A stretch of DNA of 48,442 nucleotides, the filler included, from Jimgerdemannia flammicorona (Eukaryota), in NCBI GenBank assembly GCA_003990765.1. It is 2 parts of 2 records of this genome, joined end to end, with 100 filler letters (N's around TTAATTAATTAA, not from the genome) between each part and the next. Parts side by side here need not be neighbours in the genome. Positions count along the whole stretch, not along the records: positions 1 to 24,176 come from RBNJ01001012.1; 1 more part is not named here. One strand, written 5' to 3'. Below are positions 7,858-39,047 of the stretch, one piece after another. Position numbers and translations under genes: made by a program. Position 1 is the first letter of the stretch. Each line of letters opens with the position of its first letter. The notes beneath the pieces were generated by a model, which saw nothing but the letters and a program-made list of their open reading frames with translations, was not told the DNA's origin and did not search any database.

Positions 7858-10624
7858 ATATATAGGAATATTAATAAACTCTCAGATATCTTCATAAATA
7901 TACTATATACTTTAGATATAAGTAAGAACCTCTTCTCAATAGACCAGATAATGGCTCAAGAAGATAAAGGAGTAAATATACAACTAAATAATATAATAGT
8001 AATCAATCTAAAGAATAATAAAGAGTTAATATATGTATATATTGAAAAAGTAGAACCTATATATAATTGATAATATACTAAGTAGTATATTATCTGCATA
8101 TTCTGCAATGATCAGAGAGGATCTCTGGTATATATAATACAAATACTTAGAACACATTAGCAAGATAAGCCTAGAACAGATGATAAGGAGTAGTTTAGCT
8201 AAACTATATATTTCTAAATTTCTTATAATAGATGTATAGCAAATAAGACTTTCTGGTGATCTTTTCAGAAATGGATAAAATGAGTAGTTAGCATTTTTAA
8301 CATAATACATATAGATATCTGTAGTCTTATACAAATGGCAACATACTCTGAGAAGAAATATTTTATTACTTTTATTGATAATTATACTCACAAAACCTAT
8401 ATACTTCTTTATAATAAAAAATGAGATATTCAAAAATTCTGAGAATTTAAAGTAACTATGGAGAATGAAATAGAATATAATATATAGATCTTATACTCAG
8501 ATAATAGTAAGAAATATATCAATAAAGCCTTTAGATACTTCTTAAAAAAGTATGATATTCAATACTCTATTATATATCTGAACAGAATTATATAGCAGAA
8601 TGCTTTAATTGAATAGTAGTAAAGATGGCTTAAATAATAATAAATATGACTAGCTTTATACTCCTTTTGAATTGAGACAGTGAATATAGTGATATATATC
8701 TAAAATTATTATATTTTTCAAGCTCTAAGCAAGGAATTCAGTAATAATCAGTAATCTAGAAATGATAGTGATTTTATCTCTGAAGAATTATAGAGTAGAT
8801 CTTAGTCCAATATCTCACATCTATAGATATTTGGAAGCAAGGCTTACATTCTGAATAAAGGCAGCAATAAAGACAAATTCAAGTCTAAGGCAGATAAGTA
8901 TATATTTCTTAAATATAATAGAGCAGTATATAGATTATAGAACTTATAAAAATATTATATAGTTATCTCTCATGATATTCAATTTAAGAAAACAAAGCAG
9001 GAAATTTATATAAAAATTTCTATCTTTATTAACCTAACAGTATAGCTAGTAAAACCTATACTAGTACTAGTGTAATATATATATATCAATAAGGCTATCA
9101 GAGCTAAGAATTATAGAAATTATAGATAAAGATAATGATGAGAATACTTTTCTGAAAGGTAAAAAAAAGTATAAATCTAGACTATAAAATAAAGTTGAAG
9201 TAGATTTAGAAGATTATTGAGATCAATCTAAGACATTTTATTATAAACATTATGTAAACTATATCTATGAGTATATATAGTAATGACTAGTGAGCTAGAA
9301 AACTACAATATATACCCAGATAATAAGAAAGAGTAGAAAAAGGCTATAAATGAGAAATATAATTTACTCATCAAGAATAATATATAAGATTTAGTCTCTC
9401 TTTCAGTGAATCAATAAGCAATAGAATCTTACTAGATATATAAAGTTAAATATAATAATAATAATAATATAGAGTAGTATAAGACTCAATTTGTGGCAAA
9501 GGAGTATTCACAAGGATATAGTATAGACTACAATAAGACCTTTTTCCTAATATTCAAACTTACTTCACTTAGAATACTTCTTGTAATCAGAGCTAAATAT
9601 AATTACAAAATTCACCAAATAGATATTAAGATAGCTTTCTTGAACAACAATATAGATACAGAGCTATATATTTATCAACCACAAGGATAAGAACTATATA
9701 ATGATAGAAATGAGCTTATATATAAACTATATAAAGGTCTCTATAGTATAAAATAAGTAGTAAGGCTATAGAACTGAAAAATCAACAAATATCTCTTAGA
9801 TAATAGATTTAAGTATTGTGAGGATAATTTATATATATACCTGATATATATATATTCTCAAGAATAATATACTTAAGAATCTAGATCAACAATATTATTT
9901 AGATCAGAATAGTAAATAAGATTAATAATGTAAAGATAATACTATATCAGAAATTCAAAATAACAGATATAGATAATGTGTCTTATATTCTTAGAATATT
10001 AATTATATATAATAAGTACAAGTATACCATATATTTATCACAAGTTATATATATTTAGACTATAATTTATATTAAATAGTAATCAAGTATATTTTCAGAT
10101 ATATTAAAGATATAGTATATTGTATACTCAGTTTGGATGATGATAAGAGATAAAGCAGGAGTAGTACAATAAGGCTATCTAGCATATATAATATAAACTG
10201 GGCTGGAGATCTTGATGATCAGTACTCTATAACTAAATATATCTTTAAAATTAGTGAAAATAGAGCTATTTCATAGTAAATACATAAGAAATCTTTGGTG
10301 GTAATATTATCTATACAAGCAGAGTATTAAGTATTATTTATGATAATAAAGGAAGCCATATAGCTTTAGAAACTATTAAAGAAGTTGAGATTTTCTTAAG
10401 AATAGTACTCTATGCTACTCTAATAAGACAATCAATCTATGATTACTATAGTAAAGAATCCTATATATTACATAGAATAAAGCATATTGATATATAGTAT
10501 TATTTTATATGAGAATATATGAAAAATAGTATTATATACTTAAAATACATCTCAATAGAGTATATGATAGTAGAATTATTGACTAAAGTTCTTTTAAAGA
10601 CTAAGTTTGATTTATATATAAAAG
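7858..10624 (+). mobile_element. Highly eroded Ty1/Copia pol (pre-integrase, IN, RT, RNase H)
   Basis: Degenerate motifs in Copia order: ILYSDNSKKYI (~8487; cf. LRSDNGGEY), EQNYIAECFN (cf. PEQNGVAER), YKTQFVAKEYSQGYSIDYNKTF..IHQIDIKIAFLNNNIDTELYIYQPQG (RT, 9478-9690), STQAEY, DNQS and KHIDI (RNase H, ~10310-10495). Confidence 0.88.
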
Positions 10625-11206
10625 TAGTGCTCTAAATAAGTCAATTTAATCCAGATTGAATTCAGATTAGATTCAGATTAAATACCATCTAGATCAATTT
10701 GAATCAACTATTATTTTGATTTCCAAATTAGATAATTATATATTTACATCAATAACTTAATAAATAATCATCTAATTTTGATGATCTTAGTATTATTTGA
10801 ATGCTCTTAATAAGACCTTTCTAATGATACTAAGAATATTAAAATCGGATTATATATTGTTAAGCTATTAAGAAAAACATTCTTATAAAAAAATTTCTAA
10901 AATTAGCAAGTTAAATAATTTTCAAAATTGGTGAGTCAGACATTTTCCTTAATAACTCAGTAATATATAATTTAATTTCAATATTCTTGATATCATTAGA
11001 AAGGCCTTATTAAGAACCTTCAAATAATATCAAGATTATTAAAATTGGATAATTATTTATCAAGTTATTGATATAAATATTTAATTATCTAATTTGGAAA
11101 TCAAAACAATAGTTGATTCAAATCAATCTGAATGGAATTTGAATTCCATCTGAGTTGATCTAGATGAGATTTGAATCTGATCCAGATTAGCTTATTTAGA
11201 GTACTA
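10625..11206. mobile_element. Fold-back MITE with ~250-bp imperfect terminal inverted repeats, probably hAT superfamily
   Basis: TAGTGCTCTAAATAAG...CTTATTTAGAGTACTA; arms pair to about 10880/10940. Left flank TATAAAAG (10617-10624) versus right flank TATAAAAT once Gypsy B is removed (17987-17994), a 7/8 match to an 8-bp TSD. Confidence 0.8.
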
Positions 11207-11207
11207 T

Positions 11208-11703
11208 TGTGATAGTCAATCCAAATTAGTAATATGAATCAGAGAAATTAGACATTTGATCATGATACCTGAATCCAATTCCCAATATAGCTTAGCCTTA
11301 CAAATAGCAGTCATATTTTACAAGTGTAGAAACTTTAACATTTGTAGAAACTTTGGCAACTGTAGAAATTCTACAGATATAAATCCTTCATAATCATAAA
11401 GATTCTGGCAGATGTAGAAAATTTACACTTACTGACTCACAGAAAATGTAGTCATAACTTAGCCACCTTATAGCTAGCAAAACTTGTATAAATAACCCAG
11501 TATCTTAGAGTGAATAAACCCCAGATCGAAATAGTTCAAAGCAAAGAGATAGCAAAGAAACTAGTAAGCCTACGGGCAGATATACTTCAAACTCACCCAC
11601 TCTCCCCTGCAACTTCAAAAGACTCTGTGAGAGTCAGAACAGTCAAGTTTTTAAGATACAGAAATCCAACATACTTTTAAGAGTAAGTATCCACTATGTT
11701 ACA
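11208..11703 (+). repeat. 5' LTR of Gypsy B
   Basis: TGTGA...TGTTACA; TATA-like TGTATAAATA at 11485-11494 and AATAAA at 11513-11518. Confidence 0.96.
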
Positions 11704-11706
11704 ACT

Positions 11707-11720
11707 TGGTGCCCATTGGC
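11707..11720 (+). promoter_or_regulatory. Primer-binding site TGGTGCCCATTGGC (primer tRNA not identified)
   Basis: Starts with TGG 3 nt after the LTR; identical in element A at 6229-6242 (minus). Confidence 0.75.
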
Positions 11721-11759
11721 TAGTAATTTAAGACGAATTCCTCACTTTCAAGCTGAACA

Positions 11760-13620
11760 ATGAACAATTGCCACTACCCAAACAACTACACAAACTGAGC
11801 CCCAATACTCAGATAAGATGAATATGAGACCACCAGTATTTCATGGATATACCTCAGATGAATCAATCATCACCTTCATTGATAATTTCAAGCAGTATAC
11901 TGCTGTAAGGACCCTGACAGTAGTACAGCAAGTAGTCCTTATACCCTTTAGCCTATGAGGCCCTGCAAGAGCAGCATTCACAGCTACAAACTATGTAGGA
12001 AATGATACCAATACTACACTGATAGCATAGAAGACCTGGCTTCGAAACACCTACTACATAGATGAGATCAAGTAAGCTCTGAAGGATCAGCTCAATACAA
12101 TATACCAAGGAATGAGCAAAGATCCAAACACATTCTACACCAGAATCTGATATCAGATAATCCTTGCAGATTATGCCAATGCTATCTGAGACCAAGTAGC
12201 CAAAGCAACCTTCATGAAAGAAGTCCACCCAGAGATAGCCATGGCCATCTGCTCATCACCAGTGATTCTGGATCTACCACAGAAGGTCACCTATGCTCAG
12301 CGATACTAGATAGCCAGATATCCACAAGACCATATAATGGAAAGAGTCACAGGAGTCAAAATTGAAGCACCCAAGGCAATCAGTGTGATCTCTACCACAA
12401 TGATCAATCGAAACACACCTCAGCCAAAAGCTACAGAGCAGCAAAAGAACAGTGACCCTATGGAGGAACTTGCCAAAAGGTTTGCCGAAATGACTGCCCA
12501 CCTGAGAGATGTGGTAGAGAAAATTCGAGGAAGAGACCGCCACCCTGTTCAGAAGTTTGCCACCACCTCAGACAAGAAGAAAGATACCTGCTACAGCTGT
12601 AGAGAAGAAGGCCACTACTCATATGAATGTATGAGTGAAACCAAGCACAAGGCCCAACCAAGCAATGCTATTAGAAATAAGAAACAGACCAATACAATCA
12701 TCTTTGAAGAAATTGGAGAATCTGATGAAGAGGAATGAGAGGCTTATCCTGCTCAGACCACTAAGAAGAATGTTCACAAAGAACCCTACAAGAGACCACC
12801 AGGAAGACCCAAGAAGAACCCAGTGGAAAAGCAGATGGAAACTGCCACAGAAAGCCAAGCCAAAGAGATGGACCAAGATATGGAGCTGGAGCAAGCAGTT
12901 CAAGATATTATCTGAGGAACCACTCCAGCCAGTAAAGGAGAAAAAGAAAAGAAGCTTTGCAAGACCAAGACCTTCAAGTATGATATCTTCAAAGACCTCA
13001 GTCAACAAAAGGTCAATGCAACCTTTGTCAGCTTACAGAAATCCTGATATTCAGATAGCAAATGAGGTTTGGACTTACCAAAACAACCAAGGAACAAGGA
13101 TGGAAGATAACCGAGGCCAATAATGTTCAAGAAGACTCAAGAGAAAAAAGTGAGGACAATTGCAAAACCTCTGCTTATGCAACATGCCAAATCGAAGATA
13201 GAATCTTTGAAGCCATCATTGATACTGGAGCAGGAGGATGTCTCCTAGCAAGAAGGCAGCAGATCACCTAGGTTGGGATGTGGAAGAAGCAACTAAGCTG
13301 GTATTTGTTACAGCTGATGGTACAAGAGCCACACCTCTGGGAAAAATCTGAGATGTTCTCATTAAGATTGGAGGAGCAACTATCCCAGTAGATATAATTG
13401 TAACCAACACTACCAACTATGACATCCTCATCAGCAATCAATGGCTTCACAAAGCCAAGGCAGTAATTGATCTCAATGCTCAGAAGATGCAGATCACCTA
13501 CTGGGAACAGAAGATACAAATTCCCATCAATGTCAACAAAGGAGTCCTGCTCGACATGGAGAAAGAAGAGAGTGAGCAAGAGGAAGCTTATATAGTGATT
13601 ACTCCAAAAAAAAAAGAAAG
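11760..13620 (+). pseudogene. Gypsy B gag (CCHC knuckle) and aspartic protease
   Basis: MNN..MRPPVFHGY start, CX2CX4HX4C at ~12589-12630, DTGA at ~13221, DILI.NQWL. Contains stops and small frameshifts. Confidence 0.9.
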
Positions 13621-13869
13621 TTGGATGGATGAGTGAAGAAGAATGGTACAAGAAGATTGCAGAAGGCTATGCACCACAAGGAGTCTGTCCCCATAGGATC
13701 AAGATGTATTGTATGGAGCACACTAATGATTGCTATCAGTGCACCATCGGAATCAAGAAGATTCATGAGGAAAGAAGACAGAAAGCCCTTGAGAAATAGG
13801 TCAGAGAAGAAGAGAAGAAGGAAGATGATGAACCACCAGCCCTCCTGAAGGACAGTGATGATGAAGAAG

Positions 13870-14300
13870 AAATCAAGGTCAAGATTTGAAAGATCCACCC
13901 TAATACAGTCTTGCCAGAATATAAGTCAGAAAATGCAGCCAGAATGGACATTGCTATAGTAGAAGAGACTATACTAGAACCCCAGACAACCACCCTACTT
14001 GCAACTGGACTGGAGATGACTATTCCAAAGGATCATGTTGGGATTCTCAAGACAAGAAGCAGCCTGGCTAGAAGCAAAATCACAATCAAAGGAGGAGTCA
14101 TCAATTTAGACTATACTGGAGAAATTCTACTCATTGCTAGGAATCACAATCCTACAATTCCATTTCCAGTCAAGAAGAAGGACTGATTGGCACAAATGCT
14201 GATCTTTCCAATCCTACAACCAAAGATCATAGAAGTTAAGAAGCTGGAGGAAACAAAAAGAGGAAAAAAAGGATTTGGATCTACAAGAAGAGGAGTATTC
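13870..14300 (+). pseudogene. dUTPase domain of Gypsy B, between protease and RT
   Basis: AARMDI, RSSLA, GGVINLDYTGEI, *LAQML and TKRGKKGFGST correspond to trimeric dUTPase motifs I-V; in frame with RT. Confidence 0.93.
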
Positions 14301-15809
14301 GCCAGCACCAAGATCACTGAACTCAAGCATAAGAAGGAGGAAAACACAAGCAAGTACAGCTACACCATCAGAAATGAATTTCCACTCAAGAAAGAACTCA
14401 AGAAAATACTCCATGAATTTGAAGATGTCCTTACCACAGATTTCAAAGATATCAAAGGAAAGACCCCACACTACTATCATGAAGTAGATACTGGAGACAC
14501 TGAACTAATTTATCAGAAGGCAAGACCTGTCCCGCCAGCCTACCAAGAATGGCTCAGAGAAGAAATCAAGCAGATGGAAGAAGTCAGCATCATTAAAGAA
14601 GCCAGCAGCCCCTGGTCCTCATCTATTGTACTAGTCCCAAAAAAAGGCAGTAAGCCTGGAGAATTCGCCCCAAGACTCTGTGTCGACTACAGAAAGCTCA
14701 ACATGGTTACCAAGAAGGATCGCCAACCACTGCCCCTCATCAATGATATCCTTATAACACTGGGAGACAAAGCACAGTACTATAGCACTTTGGACTTATA
14801 CTCAGGATTCCACCAAATCGGACTCACAGATATGGCAAGTGAAAAGTCAGCTTTCATTACCCCAGATGAAACCTACATCTACCTACAAATGCCATTTGGA
14901 ATGTGCAATACACCAGCAAGTTTCCAGCGAATGATGAACAAAATCTTCCACTATGACATAAGAAGATGGATGATGGTCTATGTTGATGATGTAATCATCT
15001 ACAGCCAGACACCAGAATAACACCTACAGTACATCTGGTAGATAATGGAAAGACTGAGAGAGCATGGCCTATACATTAAGCCCAAGAAATGTAAATTCGC
15101 AGAAATCAAGATCTTCTATCTTGGTCACATTATCAACTAAGATGGAACATACATGGACCCTCTCAAGATACAAGCAGTGGCAGCATATCTAAGACCCATC
15201 ACTGTTACAGAAGCCCAAGCCTTCATAGGACTTGCCTCCTATTATTGTAGATTTATTAGAAGATTTTCTAATATTGTGGGACCAATCTATGAACTTAACA
15301 AGAAGGATACCAAGTTCCAGTAGACTGGCAGATAACAAAAAGCATTTGATGAACTCAAGGTTAGACTGACCCAGGCACCCATCTTCAGAAGACCTGACTG
15401 GACTCAAGAATTCATCCTACAGACTAATGCAAGTGCACAAGGACTAGGAGCAGTCTTAGCTCAAAAGAAAGATAAAGTGGAGTATGTCATTGCATACCTC
15501 AGCTGCAGAACCTGAGGAGCTAAAAAAGAATATGAATCCTATAAGTTGGAATGCCTTGCAGTCATCTGGGCCATAGAAAAGTTCCACTACTACTTGGCTG
15601 GAAGACACTTCACCATTCAAACAGACCACTCAGCTCTCATCTGGCTACTGACAACTGGACAACCCAAAGGAATCTATGCCAGATAGATAATGAAGTTGCA
15701 AGCTTATGATGTAACCATTGTACACCACTCTGGAAAAACCAATGCCAATGTAGATACCCTCTCACAGACACCCCGAACTACCTCCAACCAACAAATCAAT
15801 CATGAATAA
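14301..15809 (+). pseudogene. Reverse transcriptase and RNase H of Gypsy B
   Basis: SPWSS.IVLVPKK, RLCVDYRKLN, LDLYSGFHQI, MPFGMCN.PASFQ, YVDD, QTNAS, LECLAVIWAIEKF, QTDHSAL, NVDTLS. Frame ends at TAA 15807-15809. Confidence 0.95.
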
Positions 15810-17004
15810 GGAGCTCTACTACAGAATTATCACATACCTGGGATAGCAAAAAATGCCCCAATATCTGGAAGAATGGACACAAATGATTATCAACAGAACA
15901 TGGAAACAATTCGAAACTGATGGAGAAATACTGAAGAAAGAAAAACTACTAGTCATACCAGAATACAAGAAGGAGTAAGCAATGAAATCAGTATATGAAC
16001 TTGGCCATCTAGGAGGAACAAATACTTATAACAAGGCAAGAAGAACAATATGGTAGCCAGAGATAGAGGAAGATATCAGACAATTCATCAAGACCTGCGA
16101 TAAATGCCAGAAACAGAAACAAGACCAATGAAATCAAGCTCTAGGATCAGCAAACATAGAACCAGTACTATTTGCCCACATTGCAATAGATGTAATTGGT
16201 CCTCTACTCTTGACTTTGACTGGCAACCAATATATCATTGTCATCGTAGACCTTTTTACAAAATGGATAGAAGCAGGACTCCTCATAGAAGCCAATGCAC
16301 AGTCAATCACCAATTTCTTCCACAAAGAAATCATCTGCTGATTCAAGACCCCATTGCAAGTAACTACAGATAGAGGAATGGAATTTGTAAATCAGTTCTT
16401 CGAAGTTCTCTACAAGAAGTACAAGATCCAGTATATTCAGACCACAGCATATCACCCTCAAGGAAATGGATAAGTAGAAAGAACCAACAAGACTCTCAAG
16501 AATATTATTGCCAAGATCTGCGATAACTATGAGAACTGGGATTACTATCTGCCAATAGCATTATCTGCTCTCCAGGATATCTGATCACAAAGTACCCACT
16601 TTACTCCTCAAGAAATACTGTTCAGAGAAGAATGATCTCAGGGAACCCTATTATCTAATAGAGATGCTGTATGGAAATATGTGGACACGGAAATATAGAG
16701 ACTACACCAAATCAGGAAGAAGACTGAGGATTACATAACCAAGGTGCAGATACTACAATGGAGGAATGTGGAAAAAACCCACAAACCTCTGGAGATTATC
16801 AAGATAGGAGATAAAGTTCTAGTATATCGGAATATGGTAGAAGCTTCATGGTCACAAAAACTGAAGCCCAAGTGGAAAGGACCTTACCTTGTGCAAGATA
16901 TAAAAGGGACCACCTTTTGGCTATAAAAACTCTCAGGTACAATTATCTCTACTACTATCTACTGAAACAGACTCAAGAAGTACCATGATCAGCCAATGAA
17001 GTAA
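15802..17004 (+). pseudogene. Integrase of Gypsy B, with its own ATG in a different frame from RT-RH
   Basis: MNKELYYRIITYL..GHLGG..W*PEIEEDIRQFIKTCDKCQ..IAIDVIGPL..VDLFTKW..TDRGMEF..YHPQGNG..WKGPY. No chromodomain recognised. Confidence 0.93.
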
Positions 17005-17510
17005 TACAGCTACCCTCAAGATCACCAGCACTGCCCAACAAGCCATAGAGAGACAATGGTGTTCTACTGAACCACCAACAATGGAGGAATCCTTTGATAG
17101 TATACAAAGTATAGTCCAGACCCACCTATCATGAATTTTACACTTCAAAGCCTACCAGACATGAACTGAGTTTCAGGAATACTTCAAGCTAAGACAACTA
17201 CTGAATTCAAATCCAAAGATGGGGAAAGAAGACTGGATTAAAGAATGTCAGCTCACCTACATTCAGATCATGATCACTAAGAGAGTACACAAATTATTCA
17301 AAGATGATGAGTTAGCTCTAGCTCATCTTCGAGAAGTAATCCCAGGAGATTTCAGACAGGTTAGGAGACAACATTGGAAGAATGTGATGGTGCAAATTGC
17401 ACAGTACAAGGAGATACAGATCATAGAAGCCTGGGAGTTTGAGTGAATAGGATACTTTAGGGATGAATCACCTATTTAGGAGAAAGTTGTGACAGTCAAT
17501 CCAAATTAGT
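16985..17510 (+). pseudogene. Accessory ORF3 of Gypsy B (env position), function unknown
   Basis: One frame with few stops: ..TEFQEYFKLRQLLNSNPKMGKEDWIKECQLTYIQIMITKRVHKLFKDDELALAHLREVIPGDFRQVRRQHW..; may extend through the PPT into the LTR. Confidence 0.7.
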
Positions 17511-17983
17511 AACATGAATCAGGGGAATTAGACATTTGATCATGGTACCTGAATCCAATTCCCAATATAGCTTAGCCTTACAAATAGCAGTTATATTTTA
17601 TAAGTATAGAAACTTTAACATTCATAGAAACTTTGACAACTGTAGAAATTCTACAGATATAAATCCTTCACAATCATAAAGATTCTAGCAGATGTAGAGA
17701 ATTTATACTTACTGATTTACAGAAAACATAGCCATAACTTAGCCACCTTATAGCTAGCAAAACTTGTATAAATAACCCAGTATCTTAGAGTGAATAAACC
17801 TTAGATCGAAATAGTTCAAAGCAAAGAGATAGCAAAGGAACCAGTAAGCCTGTGAGCAGATATACTTCAAACTCACCCACTCTCCCCTGCAACTTCAAAA
17901 GACTCTGCGAGAGTTAGAACGGTCAAGTTTTCAAGATACAGAAATCTGATGTACTTTCAAGAGTAAGCGTCCACTATGTTACA
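17488..17983 (+). repeat. 3' LTR of Gypsy B
   Basis: Ungapped match to 11208-11703, about 38 substitutions by manual count. Confidence 0.96.
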
Positions 17984-18179
17984 CTATATAAAATGAATAA
18001 AACTTATAAATAACTCTATACTAATGAGCAATTCTATACTAATCAATAGAAACTATATATCAGTAAGTAGTAAGCAATAGTAATAATAACAATATAGATA
18101 TAATAGGAAGTTTTTTAGAGTATTAAAAGTATTTTATTATATCTTATATATATATATATCAATATTACTTATATTTCTT

Positions 18180-18914
18180 TATTTGTAAATAGATTTGGAT
18201 TTATATTATAGATAATTTCTTTTGTTAATATTGCTCAGAATTTCCATTTTTCACTACTCTATTTATCTATTTTTATACTTATAAGCAGAGAATTTATATC
18301 TTTTTCAGTCATCTAAATAGTACTCAGTTAGTTATAATTTATGTAGTTCTTTTTATTTATATATTCTGAAATATATCTCATTGAGCAAGAGTATTAAAAT
18401 ATTTTAGTTATAGCAACTTAATATATAGTAATACAGTCTGATTATATTATTACTATAAACATTATAATATATGTAAAAGTATATATAAGTTAGTATTAAT
18501 AAACAATACTCTTTTTCTCTCTACTCTTCCCAAGTATTTTATAATAATTTTATTATAGTCTATCTTGTCTAGATATCTTAGTTTAATTTGAATATATATT
18601 TGAGTAATAGTAGTTATTCATTATTTAGCTTAAAAGTGAGAGATTTATTTTAAATACTAGTTAATAAATACTAAGTTGTAATATAGTAGATATATACTAG
18701 TAGAAGTATAGTAAATTTTTTTATTTTAAATACTTGATCTTTTTTAACTTCTCAGAGTTCTCAGATATAGAGATGGGTGAGTTAGAAGTATATCTGCTTA
18801 CAGGCTTACTAGTTTTTTATCTCTTTGCTTAAACTATTTTAATCTGAGATTTATTTACTTTAGATATTAAAAATATTTATATAAATTTACTAGCTATATA
18901 TAGTAGCTATATAT
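18180..18914 (-). mobile_element. Relic of a B-related Gypsy element: eroded gag start, PBS and part of the 5' LTR (18677-18914), interrupted by the solo A-LTR
   Basis: Reverse complement of 18770-18900 matches the B LTR (AAGCAAAGAGATA..CTAGTAAGCCTGTAAGCAGATATACTTC.AACTCACCCA). 18620-18676 matches the B leader (CTCACTTT.AAGCT..ATGAA). Confidence 0.75.
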
Positions 18915-19134
18915 TGTAATGGTGACTCCAGAATGATGACATTAAGCCTTTCCTTATAAGCTGTACAAGAAGATTATATGGCATATGAGATAAGTAATGA
19001 TGACCAACTGTGAGTCATTGTGACTATAGTACAAGCATTCTGAAGAATATAAAAGAAGGATCAAGGAACTGCAGTAGCAGCAATCAACAAGAACCACCAA
19101 TCCCAAAATAGCTCAAAGACTTACTACAAATAAA

Positions 19135-19953
19135 ATATCTGCTGCCTGCCAAACCTCAAGGTCAAGAAACCACCAAGGTACCTCAGTCAAAGAAAGAATA
19201 TTCCAAGACATCAGAAGAGCCATGGAGACCTACCCAAGAAGGACTCCTAGTGTCAACCTGAGTACTGCAGACCCTTATCACTTTATTCTCTACCATTATG
19301 AAATGGAAATAAGGATCACCATTGCTATTGAATGCCTCCAAATGTGATAGGAGTATGAAATAGAAAATCTCCTCTACCAGGTATTCTCATAGACCAATAC
19401 TCAAGAGCTACAAGATGCCACTTTCATGGATATATGTGAAACATAGACAGCTAAGAAGATCCATCAGATCTTCAGGCATGCACTATGGTTAATCCCCAAC
19501 TTGGAGTATGTTAGAGTCTCAGACTTCAGAGACCTATCATCCTGCCATATCAATGTACTAGAAGCCAGGGTGGCTACAGAAGCCCAGTCCACTATTATCC
19601 TCAATAGTGAAGAAGTAGAAGACTTCTGGCACTCTATCCTCCAGGACAATCCAGATCAATTTCTACAAGGATTGATCTCAGTATTCCAAGGCCCAAGCAT
19701 CCAGGTTAGACCTCCCCAAGACCTCACATTTGTTTTCTATTTTGTGGAAGAGAACCTCATAGACTGGAGAGCTCCAGATCTCCTTGTTCCCAATTTCCCT
19801 GCCACAGCTGAACATGATGACATTATTGGCGATAATATCATCCCACGTGACATATGTGAAATGTATGACCTACATAACGAGTTTGCAGATCTCATCTCCT
19901 TCAGTAATGATGATGATGATGAAGCCCCCATGGTCCTGAACTTTCTGCTTTAA
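19135..19953 (+). pseudogene. LTR-encoded ORF of ~272 codons in family A; also present at minus 7615 downward and minus 2234 downward
   Basis: Same frame in three LTR copies with stops at different codons. ATG is present in two copies (ATA here). The last 150 codons are open in this copy. Confidence 0.8.
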
Positions 19954-19970
19954 GTTCTTTGTTATACTGG

Positions 19971-20085
19971 ATAATGCCAGCACCGGTATTCTCATATAAC
20001 ACTGAATAATGCCAGCACTGGTATTCTCATATAATACTGAATAATACTAGTACTGGTATTTGATGTAACACTAAATAATGCCAGC
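19971..20085 (+). repeat. ~35-bp tandem repeat in LTR-A (ATAATGCCAGCACTGGTATTCTCATATAACACTGA), about 3.5 copies, upstream of the TATA-like box at 20190-20199
   Basis: Directly visible; the counterpart lies at ~6610-6735 on minus. Confidence 0.85.
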
Positions 20086-20567
20086 ATCCTGAACCTGTAC
20101 AACCATCAGTGCCAACCCTGGAACTTAGTAGTTTTAGTTATTGGAATTTATATTTAGCTTTATATCTTAGCAACCATTGAATTATATTTTGTATAAATAC
20201 CTCTCTTATTTCCTCTGAAATAAAGTCAGTCAAGTTTACCTACACACACTTCCTTACAAGCAATCTAAGAGATAACAAGACAGTTAAAGATAAGAAGTTT
20301 GAGAACTATAAGACCTTGAGAAGGCACTCCAATAAGAACTTGCTTATAATAAACTTGAGTTAGTCTAAGAGATATACATACCTTGAAGAGAATCTGACGT
20401 ATTTAAAGGACTCAGTAACCACTACTTGACAATATATAGTAGCTAATATAAGACTTCTTTTTCTATAAGTTATTTTATATAGTTAAGAGATTGGTATATT
20501 TGTAAAATATATATAGATAAGAGATCAGTATATCTGAGAGATTCATACAGTTATACTTTTTATATGA

Positions 20568-21750: not shown

Positions 21751-22328
21751 AGGCTGTATTTTTTATATGATCATACAAATTGTCCAACTGAGAGATTGAG
21801 TGACTGCTAAATTATAATACTATACTATATCATTTAGATCAACTATTATAATACTATATATAATAAAATATCTATTTTTTAATTTTTATTTCTAATTTAG
21901 ATTATATATTATTTAGAATTAACTTTAAACTTTTAAATAAAAAATTATTTAATATATTTTAATTTTATTTATTATATTTATAAAATATTAATATTAATTA
22001 ATTTTTAAATATATATTTAATATATTTTATTGGCTTAACTTATTTAATAATTTATATTTATAAAAGTAAAATTGAAACTCAAAATTATAATAAATTAAAG
22101 TTATAAATATAAAAATTTAAAAAAGATAATTATATCTTTAAAGAAACTTTAAATATTTAAATAATTAAAAAAGTTCTCATTATCTTCAATATATTAATTG
22201 ATAAAATATCAAATAATAAAAATATATTTCAAAATAATGCACATTATTCTATTACTGAACAAGATTTTACATTTCTTTGTCTTTCTAATGTAACAACTTA
22301 TTTCATATTTCAGTCTCAACTATTTACA

Positions 22329-23171
22329 TCACTTCCTTCCCCTTACTGCTCCCGCTCCACCTTTCATCTTAAGTTCACTGTCCTGTAACTCCGACTTTCC
22401 ACTGCTATAATAAGTAAGCATACACTCAAGCTGCCACTTGCGCCAGATCTCCTCGGAAGTGAACCCGAGCGTCTTCCACTCCAGATCTTTCTCCTTCTCC
22501 TTTTCCTTCGTCTCCTCTGCATTGGTTTCCATCTTTGTCTCCGCCTCACCATCTTCTGACTCGGACTCGTATCGCGAAGTCAGCTCGTCGCGGTTGTTCG
22601 TTACGAGTTCGTTCACAATCTGCCCCGCGCGCGTTGCCAAGTTGTCATGCTTCTTGCGGAGGGTGTGCCAATGCGAGAGGCGCTTGCGAAGTATGTCATC
22701 ATCCTCGAGGTTGGTAGCTGTAGCTGACACGGAACCGAGGATGCCGCCGCGGTCATTGGAGGGTTCGCCCAGCTCCTGCTCAATGGATTTACGGGTTTGC
22801 TCTTCCATTCTCTCAATCTCGGGTATAAGCTTTGTGCGCAAGAGGATGCCCAGTACGTGGGTCTCCTGCTCGGTCATGGTGGGGTTATGCGGGTGCAGCA
22901 TGATTTTGGGCAAGGTTGAGCCGCCAGTGCCGGTAGAGGCAGACATATAGCCGTAGAAGTCCTCGGAAAGAGAGGCAAATTTTGCGGTGAGGGTATTGAA
23001 CTTGTTGAGCAGGTCAGGCCAATTGAAAGGGAACTTTGGGTCGTTGAGGTAAAGTAGGTGGGAGGAGAAGGAGTCTTGGAGCGAGTTGAGCTTTGCACGC
23101 AGAACCTCCAACTCAGAAACGGTGTGCGGGTCAAGACGGTTCTGCATTTGACTTTGGATTTGGGAATTCAT
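22329..23171 (-). CDS. MED8: Mediator of RNA polymerase II transcription subunit 8 (single exon, ~280 aa)
   Basis: ELEVLRAKLNSLQDS..FNWPDLLNKFNTL..LHP..LGILLRTKLIPEIE match the Med8 family (WP and LLRTKL.PE). First ATG at 23171. Confidence 0.88.
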   Translation of the reverse strand: MNSQIQSQMQNRLDPHTVSELEVLRAKLNSLQDSFSSHLLYLNDPKFPFNWPDLLNKFNTLTAKFASLSEDFYGYMSASTGTGGSTLPKIMLHPHNPTMTEQETHVLGILLRTKLIPEIERMEEQTRKSIEQELGEPSNDRGGILGSVSATATNLEDDDILRKRLSHWHTLRKKHDNLATRAGQIVNELVTNNRDELTSRYESESEDGEAETKMETNAEETKEKEKEKDLEWKTLGFTSEEIWRKWQLECMLTYYSSGKSELQDSELKMKGGAGAVRGRK

Positions 23172-23312
23172 GGCGAGTGAGATGCGCAACAAAGGAACGA
23201 GTAAGAGGAACTGCAGAAACGAACCGAGCTGTGACTGTCGTCATTGTTTGGGCGTGACGTCATCCAACTTCTTGATTTAATTCCAACAGTCGAACAGTCC
23301 TTGGAACCTAAC
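23172..23312. promoter_or_regulatory. 141-bp bidirectional promoter region with a CRE-type palindrome TGACGTCA (23255-23262)
   Basis: Divergent ATGs at 23171 (minus) and 23313 (plus). Confidence 0.6.
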
Positions 23313-24068
23313 ATGGCTCCTCCAACAATCAAGCAGATCATTTACAGAACCTTCACAAGAAACCATAGCTTGACTCTCAAAGTTGATGCTGTGCGGTATC
23401 TGGAGGACTTGGTGGAAGAAGGCGAAACCCCACCTGACCAAGTTGAAGGCGTGCTCGAGAAGATCGTGACCGCTTACAGGAAGCAGGATGGTATGTAAAC
23501 CTACCTCAATTTTACTGAGTAGCGCCCAATGATTGAAGAACTGACATCATCCTGCATATGCTTTAGTTGATGCCGCCGTCATCGTCGACCGCGCCACCCT
23601 CGAGAAAGCTGTCAATAGCCTCTCGGTTATCCACGCGCCTATCGACACTCCGTTTGCCCGAAACCTGGAAAATGGTGATACGGATGCCATGGAAGAAGAT
23701 GTGGATGCAGTTACTGCTGAGCAACAATTGGATGTCACACGGCATTTTCACGTTATCGACGCGTTCAGTATGCCAAAATGGAGATATACCTATGATCAGA
23801 AAAGCTTTGTCCGGTACGATCGCTGCTTCAAGGATGTGTTTTTATGACTTATTTGTATTAAAATTAACTACCTACTTGTTCTCATGACATCCACCTTATA
23901 TCGATGTGATGATACAGCGTAACAGAAGATCCGAAACTCCTTGCCTCTGCCGCCGCCAAGGGTGATGTTCATCGAGCTCGCTTTGACATGCTCCGACAAC
24001 GGATATTGCGCAACGAGAACTTTTGTCCTCCAGCATTTCAAACCACGGACCGCGACTCTTATTTGAAG
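23313..24068 (+). CDS. DPB2: DNA polymerase epsilon subunit B, 5' part (exons 23313-23490, 23567-23813, 23918-24068), cut off at the gap
   Basis: IIYRTFTRNHSLTLKVDAVRYL, FHVIDAFSMPKWRY, RARFDMLRQRILRNENF; GT-AG introns keep the frame. Confidence 0.9.
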
Positions 24069-24115
24069 GTTGGTCTCTCACCGGCGATACGAATCATTTG
24101 ACTCAGAGATCTGCC

Positions 24116-24176
<61 letters not shown>

Positions 24177-24276
24177 NNNNNNNNNNNNNNNNNNNNNNNN
24201 NNNNNNNNNNNNNNNNNNNNTTAATTAATTAANNNNNNNNNNNNNNNNNNNNNNNNNNNNNNNNNNNNNNNNNNNN
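24177..24276. other. Artificial 100-bp contig linker (N44-TTAATTAATTAA-N44)
   Basis: TTAATTAATTAA stops all six frames and sits centrally in Ns; different, incomplete genes lie on each side. Confidence 0.92.
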
Positions 24277-24299
24277 TTTTTTTTGTTTTGTTCACATAG

Positions 24300-24945
24300 G
24301 CATTGAAAGAAGTGCACAAGAAATTTTATGACTTATACGACTCCAAGAAGAACCAAGAATCGTCTTCGCGAACCGAGGATTCGGTCGATCAGCCGGACGT
24401 GAAGGTATGCATCATGTTTATATCTCTTGGTTGCCGTGTCACTATCAATCCATTTTCATCATCGCCCTGACTCATCCTAACTGGTCGAATCGTCTTTTCG
24501 ACACTCTCGAAATCCATACAACCCCAGGTACTGATCCCTCTCATGAAACGCAATGTTCTCCAAGGTGTCAACATCCTCTTTACGAGCGTCATACCGCTGG
24601 GCCAGGACCCGCGCAAGTCTGAGATTTGGCGGCTGGCGACGCAGTTTGGTGCCGAGTGTTCGCTCGAGCTTTCGAGTAGGGTCACGCATGTGGTCGCGGG
24701 GAAGGTGAGGATCGTCTTGAGGGTTGAGGGAGTGACTGATATTTATTAGGCAAACTTTGGCTGACATTTCTCCCATTGTGTGTATGGTTTCGATTTGTAG
24801 AAAGGTACAGCGAAAGTCAATGCTGCAAGACGGCGGCAAACGATTAATATCGTGCGGACAGAATGGTACGTATGCATGTATTACTATTTCGTTTGGACTG
24901 CGTATTGCGTTGTAATCGTTACTGAAATGCGTGCGTGCGTATGTT

Positions 24946-24977
<32 letters not shown>

Positions 24978-25980
24978 TAAATAATAATAATAATAACAAT
25001 AATCGACGTACATCGTGGTCTTCATATTCCCCATTAATATTTTTTCCGACTCCATGCCTTAATTTCCCAATTTCCCAATCTCCCAATCCCCATAATATCA
25101 ATAGGCTCATCGATTCCATCGCGAAATGGGAACGGCAAGACGAGAAAGGCTACCTCCTTGAAGTCTCATCCGAAACAACACATAACGCTGATGGAAGTGG
25201 TGATCCGTCGACCCCGTTCGCGGCCGACGAAGAGATGGACGAAAACGACATTGCAAACCCGGAGTCGACCGCACCACCGGACCTGGACGATTTCGACCTC
25301 GCGCGCGACGACGATGCGCCGGCCGAGCATCTAAGTGTCAGCCTGGAGGAAGTCGCCGAGAGGACCAGTCATATGGACTGGAATGACGCTGACCGCGAGG
25401 TGGACGAGGCGCTGGCGGAGAGCGGCGTCTCGGATTGGGATGATGATGAAGAGTTGGGCGAAGCGGGGACAGAATCGGAGTCCATGGAGAGTGGGAACGA
25501 CAGGAGGTTTCTATACTGAATTTTGTGTGGTCCTTCGTGTAATCTCACTATTGCATTTCGAATTCAAGATACATGAAAATCTCCATTACTAATATTCATC
25601 TTCACCTTCTCTATCTTCTCAGGGCTCGAGGGCGAAAACGCAAGTCCCAGACCACGCCCCGCCATACAGACATAGACGACGGCGAGCGGGGGTCTGACGG
25701 CGAGAGCGACACAGGCAGCCCGCGCCTGAACGGCTCGCGTCTGTCGAAACGGGTGCGTATCTCGCGATCGCGCAAATCGGGCCTGTCCAAGATGGTGAAG
25801 CTGGACGAGGACGAGGACGAGGACGATAATGATGTCGAGGATGAAGAAGACGAGAACGCCGAGGATGACAGCGGCGACGACGAGGATGATGAGGGCGAGA
25901 GCGCTGGCGCCGCCGAGGAGGAGGATGAGGACGACTTTCTGGAGGCCCTGGCGGGGAAGTTGGACGAGGAGTTGGATTAA
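24300..25980 (+). CDS. FCP1: RNA polymerase II CTD phosphatase Fcp1, 3' part with BRCT domain and acidic tail (exons 24300-24404, 24528-24704, 24801-24865, 25105-25506, 25623-25980)
   Basis: LKEVHKKFY..PDVK|VLIPLMKRNVLQGVNILFTSVIP..IWRLATQFGAEC..VTHVVAGK|KGTAKVNAA..IVRTEW|LIDSIAKWERQDE..MDWNDADREVDEAL; frame-consistent GT-AG introns. Confidence 0.92.
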
Positions 25981-28900
25981 GCGATGGGATGATGTGTCAC
26001 TTCACGCGTTGGGTTGCTTGAACATTACTGGTGATTGATAAGATTATCACTTGTGAGAGGGGGGTTGGGCCTTTTTTTCGGGGGGGGGGAATCCTGTGAG
26101 ATGTAATTATTGTCATTCATCATGTATGTAAAGTTTGTTGGGGATTTTCTCTTGTACATTTTCTTTTTGTTATGTAATGAGGTGACCAGTTGCACAAATC
26201 ATCATTTGTTTATTTTTGAATGGCAGATTTACATAGCTTTTTCGCCATGCATAGATTTGAGGGATTCAGTGAATGTCATGTTGAATAATAATTTTCTTGC
26301 TCGATTTCTCGCATTGTGCATTGTCCTCATGTCAACAGCGTGTTTGCTCGTCCTCACAATCAATATCGCTGCAAGGCATCCCCCCTTCTCAATCGCCACA
26401 GGTGTTGCATCGGCGTACTCCTACTTGCGGGCTGGATGGTATCGGTGAGGTTGGCGAAAGCATTGTGGCGGACGCGGCAGGGCATGGAAGTGGGTGAGTT
26501 ATGCAAGTTGTGTTGACTTGTTTCGAGCGGAGTTCGTGAATTAGCTTTTGACGGGAAGTTACAACGTCGCCCTTCATGCACACACACACACACACGCACA
26601 TACCCTATCCTACTCAAAGACTCGTGCTTTGATACCTCGCCTATCTCTTCCTTCTAACCTCCACCATAAGCGTGTCACCTGAAAACCTCTCCCGTCCGCG
26701 CAGAGTCGATGTCGATCTCTCGGTTGGTGCGAGGTTGGGCGGTGAGGAAGGGTAAGAGAAAAGGGGATTGTGAAGAGGTTGGGGAGATTGTTTGGCAGTG
26801 CAATGAGAAAAGGGAAGGGACGTAATATAGAGTCAGCTCACGGCTCGAACGGGATCGGTTTTCAATAAACGTAATTTCATCAACGCCATTTATCACCCGC
26901 AGTTTCGCCCCATGATTCATGTAATGCGCAAAATCCCAAAAACCCGCTTTCTAGGAAATATACGTTCAGTTCTGCGTGGCTGAAGTATTCCGTACAATGG
27001 CATAACCGCTCACTGCTGGTTAGAGCAGCTATGTGTATGTAGGTCATTTCATCCCTGCTCTCAAATCTCGATCTGATGAGCACTCCGCTAAATGGTCTCT
27101 GGGGATGGTTCCAAAGGCCATGAGAGAGCGGTGCCACCTTTATTTTCCTGAAAAAGGCAACGACTTAGTTCTAGCCTCCTCTGTCCTTAATGCATCACGT
27201 GACATATATACAGGAAGTACAAACAAACCACTCTTCGCACCATGCCAAGAACCACCAAGTACACACAGACATATCTGAACACCGCACCCCCTTTTGTGTC
27301 CTACCTCTATCTGTCGTGGGACACCATTGACATAAAGACGAAGGGCTACGCCGCAAAACATAAGATTCCTCCAATGGCACCTTACCGACCCTGCCTCCCC
27401 CCTCGTCGCCCTCTTCACTCCAGAATGGACCGCCAAGGCCGCCGAAACGATCCAAGCGCTCTCGAAAAAGACATGGAACTTCCTAAGGCCATTTCCACAA
27501 AATCTTGACTTCACCAACTGCCTCCCTCCGGACCTCCCTCCGGACCTCCAGCCGCAACAGAACCGGCATATGACGGACGGACGCTCTGTCGGCGATTTCC
27601 ATCATGCTCATTCTCTCCGACATTCCTACACAGGATCCAAATAATCCCGCGATGCTGTTTATAATGGCGTACGATATAATGGATATGGTGCGGTTGGGGC
27701 CCTATAACGGGAAGGAAGCGGCCTTGCCCGAGCGCGAAGGCGAAAATTTTATGAATTGAGTCGGGATGTCTCGAAAAAGCCATTGATGGTGTGGAAGAAG
27801 AATGTAATGGTAACGGAAGCGGAGGGTTCGGGAGTGTGTCCCCGGGATTTCCCGCCATTCTTTATGCCTTGCTGCGAAAGATGCGCGAGGCGAACACGAC
27901 GACAGATTTGATACCTATGTTGCTCTGGTGCCGACTTGTAAATGGAACCTGGTAAGCTATCATTTACATTGCATGTATATATATATGTTGTTTTAACTCC
28001 TCTTGCCTTATCATCGTCTCATTCCTTCCGGACCTCTTACGACCTCCCACAGGCATAACATCGCAACTGAACCTCCTCGAGCCACACCTCATCCAGACAC
28101 TCGATCACTGTACAGCAGAGCTGTACCGTCTAGCCACCGAGCACCCGGCTGGGCCCATCGGCGCGAGCTTGTCCTGTAGTACGACCGGCTGATTCACGAG
28201 CAGTGGTGTCGGACACCGATGCTCTTCTTCTGTATAGCCCCGCCCCGATAACGGCATTGAAGGCCATCGGGCGCGCCCTAAGAGCGCGCATAAACACGTC
28301 CAGCCCCAAGTCGAAGACCTTGTGGACGGGGTATTAAGGCACGGTTCTTTGAAGCCCAAGGTCGAGTTCGAGACGTGGAAGCCTTGGAGGATTGAAGAAG
28401 CAGCAGAGTGGCTCGAGGGGGTGACTGGGTGAGTTACGGAACGGTGGCCCGCGGGAACGGTAATGGTGGTGAGCGGTGGAATAATGGCGGGGAGTATGTG
28501 CAGTGGGTTCTCCAGTCAAACGCGTCGAACGGTAGCTGGAGGCAACCTTGTCAAATGCGATGGTGGTGATGCTTAAATACCTTGGATGTTTGAATCATTC
28601 CTATCACGACGAAGATGGTTAACTGGGGGCTTATTGGAGGTGAATATACTTTTTTTTTTTTTTTTCAATTAAATATTCTAGCTGCAAGGGATTGAGTTCT
28701 CGGATTCTTAATAGCACGTTCGAAGAATACTAACAGTTGGGTGGGGTTGACGTAATCACATTGACACAAACCACCACTCAGAACATATAAAACCCCCCTC
28801 TGCTGAAGCAATGGTCCTCTTCAACCGTTTCCTTTTCTATGATGTTTTGGTGTTGATTTTCGTTTTTTTCGAATATTATTCGACGATATTAACCCAGTTC

Positions 28901-30174
28901 CCGCACCACTTTCCAAAGACGGTTGCCAGTTTGCGGCATGTGACCGCAAGTTACTATATCAACTAGAGGTGGCGTAATAATTCTTCACAGTGACTCAGTG
29001 CACGACAGGAATTTGTCAAGCGCGGGCTGATTTGATGTCGTTGGGGGAAGCGAAGAGTGTGGTGGAGTAGGAAGGGTTAGGAGCCATATGGTCTATATTG
29101 CACAGTTGTAAAAATGAGTCGGCGTTTGTGGACGTTGCAGAATCTGAAAGGCTGGAGGTTCCGGATCAGGCCCCGGAATCGCGTGGTCTCTTTCAAGGAA
29201 ATAAATCTGTTCTGTTCCGTAGTACCAACGTGCTCGGGTCGCTCTCCGTGACGCATTCAAATCCGTTCAACGTGACGCGCTCCACGAAATGGATATTGCG
29301 GAAGAGGCCTCCGAGTGAATTGGTGGCGGGGAGGGGCGAGTCTTTTAAGACCTTCTAAATGTCAGGGAGAGCCGGCGACGGGAAACGAGCAGACAATTGA
29401 ACAGCCTGCAAAGGTCGTGAATATCAAAAATTTGATACAAGGGATACCAAAGACGAGCTTTTTGCAAACACCTTGACAAAGCCTATGCCATACTGCAAGA
29501 TTTATTTCGGAAATGCAGAATCCAACATGCCCATCATCCCGGAACAAACCATCGCGCGCCGCAGCATATCCTCGGACCCCTTCGCTTGGATCTCGAGCCC
29601 AACTTAACGCCAAGAACTATCTCTGCAAATCGTGCTCATCCCCCCCCCCCCCCCCCCCCCCACGACGATGACGATCCGTCCCTCTGTGTCTTCCATGTCC
29701 TTAACCCCGAATGCTCGGCAATCTCCCCCCGCTGGTATGAGTGCTCCAGCTTACCCACGGTCGCCGAAGATGAGATTTGCGTTAGGTCAGCCGAGATTAT
29801 GGAACCTGGACCCAGGTACCAGGAACTAGGAACGTGGCTTGGTTATGATGTCATCACAATCAAGACCGACGTTCGCAACCGGGAAAGCTACAACGCTCAT
29901 ATCTGCATGTCAATCTTACCAACGTATCGTCCTCGAAACATGTTTCATCGAGTATAAATACATATATTCTTATGACGCACCGTGATTGAGATGTCTCCTA
30001 CAGTTGATCGGAGTATGGTGGTCGAAAAATAAAGCGCATCGATTTTGATGCGCATATATAAATATATATGAAAGGATGTACAGTTAAAAAGCAAAAATTC
30101 GCTATGTATTGTATATTACAAGTTTGTTGTGAGCCTCCAGTAATGTCTTGCTCCCCGTCCCTAAAATTCTCGGA

Positions 30175-33542: not shown

Positions 33543-33644
33543 GGTGTCGAGGTGGTCAGAGAATCTGGTTTCCTGGCCTTTGTTGCGCGCCGGTGGCTGA
33601 GATGAAATGTGGTGGGCATGGTGACGCAATTTGGGGACATTGAT

Positions 33645-33722
33645 ATATATATATTTTATATATTTTATATTTTATATATTTTATATTTTATATATTTTAT
33701 ATATTTTATATTTTTTTTTATA
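33645..33722. repeat. (TATATTT/TATATATTT)n AT-only tandem repeat upstream of NSE2
   Basis: Directly visible. Confidence 0.85.
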
Positions 33723-38776: not shown

Positions 38777-38811
<35 letters not shown>

Positions 38812-39047
38812 AGCCTTGTTGGTTCTCTCACCATCAGGCTCTACGCCAGTCGCCCAAAAACACTACTTCGGCCGTCAGCGAAATCATTGAACAAATAATA
38901 GCGAAACTTGTAGTAATGTAGTATCTCATAATAATTGTCTAACGTGTGACGTCAGAAGATGGGCACTATTGTTGGTATATCATTGTTATTTTTTTTTTTC
39001 GTCTTTCTCCACCATCCCCGAACCTTCACTCTTCTCCTATCCCGCCA

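Follow-up and report, generated by a model that had tools for sequence, protein, structure and literature searches.

The long terminal repeats (LTRs) of a Ty3/Gypsy retrotransposon family in the fungus Jimgerdemannia flammicorona, here called family A, very probably carry a genuine accessory protein-coding gene, which is likely to lie wholly inside their U3 region. The gene was analyzed in a stretch of 48,442 nucleotides, filler included, from assembly GCA_003990765.1 (the window; two records joined by 100 filler letters, with positions 1 to 24,176 from RBNJ01001012.1). This window contains three family A LTR copies, c3 (18915-20431, plus strand), c2 (6246-7857, minus strand), and c1 (1557-2476, minus strand), in which an earlier reading of the DNA alone, the sequence-only reading, had noticed a common open reading frame (ORF). 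The data showed that the three copies in the window are pseudogenes, that intact relatives exist elsewhere, and that the coding sequence has been under purifying selection.

A reading frame shared by the family A LTRs

One frame of about 272-290 codons is common to the three LTR copies. In c3 it occupies 19135-19953 on the plus strand (272 codons plus TAA) and is interrupted by stops at 19345 (TGA), 19348, 19390, and 19444 (TAG). In c2 it occupies 6743-7615 on the minus strand, with the ATG at 7615-7613, 290 codons plus TAA, and stops at 7402, 7084, and 6985. Only part of it is present in c1, where it starts with the ATG at 2234-2232 (minus strand), contains stops at 2024, 1883, 1742, and 1604, and runs into the truncation of the repeat. 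The numbers of internal stops in this frame were 4, 3, and 4 for c3, c2, and c1, whereas every one of the five remaining frames of these stretches contains 9-31. The single sense frame described by the sequence-only reading, together with the peptide quoted from it, was found in all three copies. The same reading held that the stops of the copies complement one another, on the basis of a Met-Trp-Gln site read as ATG TGA TAG in c3, ATG TGG TAG in c2, and ATG TAG CAG in c1. These codons are exactly as given and the stops do complement one another there, but each copy contains further stops besides those at this one site. The length of about 272 codons agrees with c3, in which, as a further correction, the ATG is replaced by ATA (19135-19137).

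The stops in the window copies fall at Trp or Gln codons of their sister copies. Copy-specific changes were nearly all transitions; of those specific to c2, 41 were C>T or G>A, 8 were transitions in the opposite direction, and 1 was a transversion. Positions with Arg in the intact relatives are Cys or His in the window copies, as expected from CpG decay, which converts CGN to TGN or CAN. The ratio of observed to expected CpG was 0.02-0.12 in the transposon DNA versus 1.04 in the host-gene part; this comparison spans 1-21000 (transposon-derived) and 22000-40000 (host genes). The ratio (CpA+TpG)/(ApC+GpT) exceeded 1 both in the LTRs and in the internal regions. The decay looks like CpG-directed C-to-T change rather than repeat-induced point mutation of the Neurospora type. 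The three copies are pseudogenes, killed by C-to-T and G-to-A transitions, and the gene therefore belongs to the family as a whole and is not active at this locus. Insertions and deletions followed a different pattern inside and outside the frame. Between c2 and c3, all four of those inside the ORF were multiples of three (9, 42, 9, and 12 bp), and none of the seven elsewhere in the LTR was (11, 11, 1, 1, 22, 1, and 4 bp).

Intact relatives of the ORF were present in protein and metagenome collections. When c2, read through its stops, was used as query against 5.8 billion protein clusters, four proteins were matched, one of which, P0004, is an intact protein of 271 amino acids (MPAARQTSRS.. 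to ..RILNFLL). A profile search without length limit against 1.84 billion representatives returned 5 proteins, all of the ORF family, and the profile search of the 5.8 billion clusters returned 11 clusters, all on short metagenome contigs, none with a functional name, and none joined to a further domain. No fused form was found in the search of 1.84 billion representatives, nor among longer proteins, the latter being weak evidence. Identity to P0004 ranged from 80% down to 27-39% (P0009, P0010, P0011, P0012, and P0014; P0010 is encoded on a contig of 4848 bp). The full-length members all start with MP. and have the blocks W(Q/H)(E/D)YEI, HQ(I/V)FRH.P, LQDN.DQ, and F(Q/E)GP.I in common.

At the DNA level, a metagenome scan for further loci yielded one, L001, and the viral and prokaryote genome collections yielded none. 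L001 is a 1345-bp metagenome contig with an intact ORF of 323 codons, which encodes a protein 55% identical to P0004 and sits between the same conserved signals as in the window copies. Its open run of 343 codons was not reached in any of 1000 dinucleotide shuffles, the maximum being 186. The ratio of nonsynonymous to synonymous divergence (dN/dS, Nei-Gojobori) of L001 against c3, c2, and c1 was 0.198, 0.165, and 0.187, with proportions of nonsynonymous and synonymous differences (pN and pS) of 0.25-0.29 and 0.67-0.71; dS is near saturation, so that these ratios are approximate, although the excess of silent changes is plain. Among the three window copies dN/dS was 0.39-0.54, which is the expectation for neutral decay on top of older, selected divergence. 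The sequence-only reading had proposed that a restored consensus of the LTR copies be examined for an uninterrupted ORF with dN/dS below 1. With two natural intact copies, P0004 (271 amino acids) and L001 (323 codons), a consensus was unnecessary, and the ratios of 0.17-0.20 lie well below 1.

The family is also abundant among the contigs of four public runs (1576 contigs placed in run X1). Contigs of a soil metagenome run have C at 19390 and AG at 19444-5, and are thus open where c3 has stops. Such run contigs are uninformative on expression and on the starts, ends, and strand of transcripts. On all of these comparisons the gene is intact and under purifying selection across the family. The intact relatives, the dN/dS values, and the in-frame indels within the ORF bear out the accessory gene that had been proposed, and it is very probably a real, selected, LTR-borne gene.

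The repeats that carry the ORF are true LTRs, with boundaries defined by a polypurine tract (PPT) and a primer-binding site (PBS). Family A LTRs are 1.5-1.6 kb long. Blastn of 18915-20431 against the window aligned c3 with c2 (7857-6246) over its full length (79.5% identity, 1626 columns), and with c1 (2476-1577) over its first 878 bases only (84.7%, 900 columns); c1 and c2 are 90.2% identical over 919 bases (1558-2476 and 6939-7857). The copy c3 is full length (1517 bp) with TG..CA ends, c2 (1612 bp) is the 5' LTR of a minus-strand element, and c1 is the 3' LTR of that same element and ends inside the ORF at 1557, where a different repeat starts. All three copies start with TGTAATRG (TGTAATRGTGAC) and both complete copies end with ..TGACA, so that the termini, TGTAAT..GTGACA, have the TG..CA form of Ty3/Gypsy LTRs. 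A PBS-like sequence, TGGTGCCCATTGG (also written TGGTGCCC), is located at 6230-6242 (minus strand), 3 nt past the c2 end ..GTGACA, and the same sequence follows the 5' LTR of a second family, family B. No tRNA gene that could name the primer was found in the window. At the other end, the polypurine tract AGGAGGAAGA (2477-2486, minus strand) abuts the start of the 3' LTR, TGTAATGG. Since there is neither a PPT upstream nor a PBS downstream of c3, this copy looks like a solo LTR. It is flanked on both sides by ATAT, a possible 4-bp target duplication, which in AT-rich DNA is weak evidence; the minus-strand family A element lacks the end of its 3' LTR. The ORF region thus occurs in each of the two LTRs of the minus-strand element as well as in the apparently solo c3.

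The minus-strand LTR pair encloses 3.8 kb of retroelement sequence (2477-6245, minus strand). Internal regions were translated with X at stops and scanned with Pfam, which revealed gag (CCHC), protease, part of a dUTPase, and then integrase (rve). Relative to family B this copy has a deletion of about 2 kb at 3776-3808 (minus strand) that removed reverse transcriptase (RT) and RNase H, and it is therefore non-autonomous even when point mutations are not counted.

Position of the ORF within the LTR and its candidate signals

Family B provided the comparator for the layout of the family A LTR. It is represented by a plus-strand Ty3/Gypsy element at 11208-17983, with LTRs at 11208-11703 and 17487-17983 that are 497 bp long, 92% alike, and without the ORF. 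Its pol region is about 68% identical to that of family A at the nucleotide level. The Pfam domains occur in the order gag zinc knuckle, RVP_2, dUTPase (E 2.5e-23), RVT_1 (5e-30), RT_RNaseH (4e-30), Integrase_H2C2, and rve, and the order protease, RT, RNase H, integrase is that of Ty3/Gypsy elements. The Pfam scan of the internal regions found no chromodomain after the integrase. The dUTPase domain between protease and RT is located at 13911-14285 (plus strand) in family B and at about 3770-4000 (minus strand) in family A. Alignment of family A and family B LTRs was no better than that of shuffled sequences except in three places: the core with TATA and AATAAA, roughly the final 40 bp, and the PBS. 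As the rest of the LTRs could not be aligned, the family B LTR is not simply a family A LTR that has lost the ORF. An inverted fragment of a family B LTR end and leader also lies just upstream of c3 (18599-18898); it matches 11469-11782 and 17749-17983 with 72-73% identity and indicates nested or rearranged insertions.

The TATA-like box and the AATAAA reported by the sequence-only reading were both found downstream of the ORF in c3, as TATAAATA at 20192-20199 and AATAAA at 20219-20224 (plus strand). This candidate core promoter and poly(A) module has a spacing of 27 nt in c3, and of 26 nt in L001 (1218/1244) and in the family B LTR (11487/11513); it is thus kept in three lineages, namely family A, family B, and L001. 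Because family B has the same PBS and a 497-bp LTR without the ORF, the module must be its promoter and poly(A) signal, and by homology it marks the border between U3 and R in family A. The border was placed by motifs and by family B rather than by RNA ends. The ORF of c3 (19135-19953) lies between the LTR start at 18915 and the conserved TATA box at 20192, that is, wholly within the U3 so delimited. In family A, a U3 of about 1.3 kb containing the ORF would then be followed by a very short R and by a U5 of some 190 bp. The assignment to U3 made by the sequence-only reading is supported by LTR ends fixed by PPT and PBS and by the presence of the TATA-AATAAA module in three lineages, including the ORF-less family B, and a location of the ORF in U3 rather than in R or U5 is likely.

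The 35-bp tandem array mentioned in the same reading was found between the ORF stop and the TATA box, at 19966-20086 in c3 (plus strand, 3.5 copies) and at 6632-6736 in c2 (minus strand, 3 copies). Each 35-bp unit contains 8-bp inverted half-sites, AATGCCAG..CTGGCATT. The array may serve as an enhancer or a set of binding sites and is a plausible response element. The LTRs of family B have an 18-bp tandem repeat of their own upstream of the TATA box (2.4-2.9 copies, 11316-11368 and 17606-17648), which parallels the 35-bp array of family A.

A second TATA-like sequence, GAATATAAAAG, is located upstream of the ORF (19045-19055 in c3, plus strand), 86 nt from the start codon in the window copies and 64 nt in L001. 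It is invariant in the three aligned sequences (c3, c2, and L001), although conservation is poor over about 60 columns that follow it; the sequence AAGACTCACTACAAA just upstream of the ATG is likewise conserved, as is an A at -3. The invariance of GAATATAAAAG upstream of the ATG suggests that the ORF has its own promoter inside U3, and we consider the chances of this to be about even. In such a case, transcription would start from GAATATAAAAG and polyadenylation would occur at the LTR's own AATAAA, giving an mRNA of 1.1-1.2 kb held within a single LTR. Every LTR, including the solo LTRs of an active lineage, would then amount to a complete gene in itself, about 1.1-1.2 kb in size. Alternatively, the ORF may be expressed in the manner of sag or nef, from the 3' end of the element RNA. 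Inspection by eye of the sequence around the ATG showed no convincing splice signals. A scan for sigma-70 promoters and terminators gave results at the level of shuffled sequence and is irrelevant to a eukaryote.

The predicted product and alternative explanations

The predicted protein has a basic, arginine-rich N-terminus (RQTSRSRNHQ..RRAMRTRTRR) with a net charge of +1 to +8. In the models, residues 18-185 or so are helical and are followed by a small beta unit, and the last 56-126 residues are disordered, rich in indels, and of low confidence (predicted local distance difference test score, pLDDT, 25-36). This tail has a net charge of -15 to -25, 21-32% Asp plus Glu, and 26-32% FWLIVMY residues in all five homologues analyzed, which is the composition of an acidic activator, and it contains the conserved hydrophobic motifs F.(D/N)L(I/L), DLI(S/T)F, and LNF.(L/I). 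No membrane segment was found in six homologues, the maximum 19-residue Kyte-Doolittle mean being 0.47-1.07. Read from composition, the protein appears to be a nuclear one with an acidic activation domain, and the product is probably a soluble, nuclear regulatory protein.

Searches for a related protein or fold gave no match. Pfam scans of the three window copies and of all 12 family members gave hits at chance level only (ATG5_HBR, E 0.09; EF-hand, E 0.06), with no other family at E <= 1 among the 12 members, and a sequence profile search of the PDB returned nothing at E <= 10. In the Atlas, the best feature score was 0.83 with a template-modelling (TM) score of at most 0.33 and an Atlas model pLDDT of 0.35, which is no match. 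Foldseek against the PDB and the fold search of BFVD each returned no match at E <= 0.001. The wide VIA-align search gave best Z values of 4.2 and 4.5, under the noise level for helical models; its low-scoring MarR-like rows were rejected as evidence. Neither Pfam nor the wide fold search revealed a recognisable DNA-binding domain. A homodimer prediction returned a score of 0.00 ('no answer'), which speaks neither for nor against a dimer.

Our best guess, which is tentative, is that the product is a transactivator of the LTR. It would switch on transcription at the LTR of its own element, perhaps via the 35-bp repeats with their palindromes, and would in this respect resemble foamy-virus Tas or human T-lymphotropic virus (HTLV) Tax. 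The fuller version of this proposal, a fungal 'complex retrotransposon' in which the LTR is a gene with its own TATA box, ORF, and shared poly(A) signal, and in which a transactivator of new fold binds the 35-bp repeats and switches on the main promoter, is somewhat less probable again. If it were true, solo LTRs of live lineages would feed the activator in trans to the whole family, and an element without env would have a positive-feedback circuit convergent with those of foamy-virus Tas and HTLV Tax.

Other roles and other placements were weighed against this interpretation. The product could instead be directed at the host, either as an anti-silencing factor that counters the CpG methylation and mutation typical of these elements, or as a chromatin tether that directs integration in place of the missing chromodomain. 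The CpG depletion of the transposon DNA relative to the host genes indicates strong silencing pressure, and a tether would suit elements that lie in AT-rich DNA without a chromodomain after the integrase. However, Pfam and the wide fold search showed no similarity to known suppressors or tethers, and mutation of the window copies was not prevented, so that a host-directed role is unlikely, though it fares best among the alternatives. A post-transcriptional product like Rev or Rem, with the Arg-rich N-terminus binding the element RNA and Leu-rich C-terminal motifs (DLISF and LNFLL) acting as an export or interaction signal, would account for the basic N-terminus and for the conservation of the C-terminal hydrophobic motifs. 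However, Pfam showed no homology to RNA-binding families, these elements show no evident intron or need for splicing, and the strong acidity of the tail (net charge -15 to -25) is more in keeping with an activation domain than with an export signal. We regard this role as improbable.

A placement in R/U5 was judged equally improbable. In this arrangement the gene is real, GAATATAAAAG is the promoter of the element, and the ORF is the first cistron of the leader, like ORF0 of plant elements, repeated at both ends of the RNA within a very long R. The invariance of the upstream GAATATAAAAG across lineages agrees with it, and the available part of PMC3485330 offers a plant precedent for an extra ORF 5' of gag, in Retrosat2 ORF0. 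However, the downstream TATAAATA-AATAAA module is equally conserved and is the sole module of this kind in the ORF-less LTR of family B. Moreover, an AATAAA about 1.1 kb past the upstream start would tend to end transcripts in the 5' LTR before gag, and an R as long as about 1.1 kb would be most unusual.

That the ORF is a passenger, a host gene fragment captured by the LTR with no role for the element, is very unlikely: LTRs can take up foreign sequence and the related family B has no ORF, but no cellular homologue appeared among the 1.84 billion representatives (5 hits, all of the family) or the 5.8 billion clusters (11, all on short metagenome contigs), and the ORF persists in relatives that are only about 30% identical, with its start, motifs, and flanking signals conserved. 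Least credible of all is a chance open frame produced by the composition of an A-rich repeat, which the stops in all three local copies and the poor predicted structure might suggest but which is contradicted by the shuffles (0/1000 reaching the L001 run), the low dN/dS, the in-frame ORF indels, and the intact distant homologues.

Several points weigh against a U3-borne accessory gene as set out here. All three local copies are dead and nothing is active at this locus. The family is rare in protein databases, with 11 clusters, and the near-saturation of dS limits the precision of dN/dS. The genomic context of an intact copy comes from one relative, L001, which stops short of both LTR ends, and the distant homologues (P0009-P0012 and P0014) are assumed to lie in LTRs. 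A run search listed no run recorded as RNA, and the gene is known from DNA and protein sequences. The two AlphaFold2 models are poor (mean pLDDT 51.0 and 57.4), and the proposed function is read from composition, the Pfam, PDB-sequence, Atlas, and fold searches having given no match.

Surroundings, known systems, and significance

The window also contains host ORFs with similarity to Med8 (22332-23240, minus strand, E 1.6e-9), a GATA zinc finger (45514-46212, minus strand, 5.7e-13), and Swc3 (47213-48181, minus strand, 3.7e-6); the window is therefore fungal nuclear DNA. In the Atlas, the clusters closest to the Med8-like protein come from fungi. Between the elements there are blocks with a GC content of 0.20-0.23 (7866-11150 and 17984-18914), which may be older repeats mutated past recognition. 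Where c1 is truncated there are a tandem repeat with a 14-bp unit (TCAATCCAGATGGA, 9.8 copies) and a GAGTTGATCTRGATGAGATT motif, which recur just before the 5' LTR of family B (1330-1461, 1500-1556, and 11150-11200); an inverted repeat of 216 nt is located nearby (10662-10877 and 10943-11158). These sequences may represent another repeat family. Positions 41001-42000 have a GC content of 0.30 and a GC skew of -0.50, and a long homopolymer run at about 43300-43400 corresponds to some 30 Phe codons on the minus strand.

The usual view is that LTR retrotransposons code for gag and pol only and that their LTRs are non-coding, and to our knowledge an ORF inside a terminal repeat is otherwise known mainly from complex retroviruses. 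The nearest layout is that of mouse mammary tumor virus (MMTV), in which the whole sag ORF of about 270-320 codons lies in a long U3 of about 1.2-1.3 kb, with a short R and the poly(A) signal at the U3/R border. As with sag, the fungal ORF is inside a long U3 next to a minimal R, so that both LTRs and solo LTRs carry it. Unlike Sag, a type II membrane glycoprotein, the fungal protein has no membrane segment (maximum Kyte-Doolittle mean 1.07), and neither the 12 members nor the window copies have Pfam-level homology to Sag. The host is a fungus and the element is a Ty3/Gypsy element without env, and a superantigen role is meaningless here. The abstract of PMC2118998 refers to an ORF region in the 3' LTR of Mtv-9.

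The fungal gene also resembles other retroviral systems in its location and signals. It is an accessory gene located in or near the 3' LTR, as are foamy-virus Tas/Bel1, HTLV Tax, and nef of human immunodeficiency virus, and it shares with the Tas and Tax systems a candidate internal promoter, an acidic C-terminal region, and repeats upstream of the TATA box as possible response elements. However, no homology to these proteins was found in Pfam or BFVD, Nef included (no Pfam match in the ORF family), and the fungal ORF is entirely inside the LTR and not between env and the LTR.

Among retrotransposons, the additional ORFs (aORFs) of plants are the closest in character. According to the available text of PMC3485330, ORF0 of Retrosat2, RIRE3, and RIRE8 is lineage-specific, evolves faster than pol, and is under selection. 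The fungal ORF is likewise a lineage-specific extra ORF kept under selection, with no function assigned. Unlike the plant ORF0, which is located between the 5' LTR and gag in that text, it is in the LTR and not in the internal region. Phrases on LTR-located ORFs have no occurrence in the text of the aORF review PMC7264820. A dUTPase between protease and RT is described for Ty3/Gypsy elements of basidiomycetes, such as PosPlaTy3-5 of Postia placenta, in the accessible text of PMC2864245, and the backbone gag, protease, dUTPase, RT, RNase H, integrase is the same as in the elements of the window; unlike the latter, the basidiomycete elements are not said in that part of the text to have an LTR-borne ORF. 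In the open-access literature, as far as its accessible text goes, no LTR retrotransposon was found to be described as having an ORF within its LTR, and the position of an 'add. ORF' in figure 3 of PMC2864245 is not readable. The abstract on the Podospora element 'crapaud' describes variation in the 5' half of the LTRs. Three apparent precedents were set aside on the text available for each: the 'LTR ORFs' of PMC12037069 are pol ORFs and not LTR-internal, the phrase 'LTRs encode' in a Blumeria preprint is a general statement and does not denote an LTR gene, and the passage on brtn of Botrytis BcGypsy1 gives no position and is not usable.

Accessory genes of LTR retroelements were already known; what is new is a U3 layout tied before to complex retroviruses and now found in a fungal Ty3/Gypsy family. 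If this is a conserved and selected family of U3 genes, the layout arose outside the retroviruses too. In that case solo LTRs would have a coding role, and an orphan family without a known fold would join the accessory factors of transposable elements. There is also a consequence for annotation, where such ORFs are masked as repeats or named as hypothetical proteins on short contigs. Finally, family A and its relatives would offer a tractable fungal system for the study of how retrotransposons regulate themselves or control silencing by the host.

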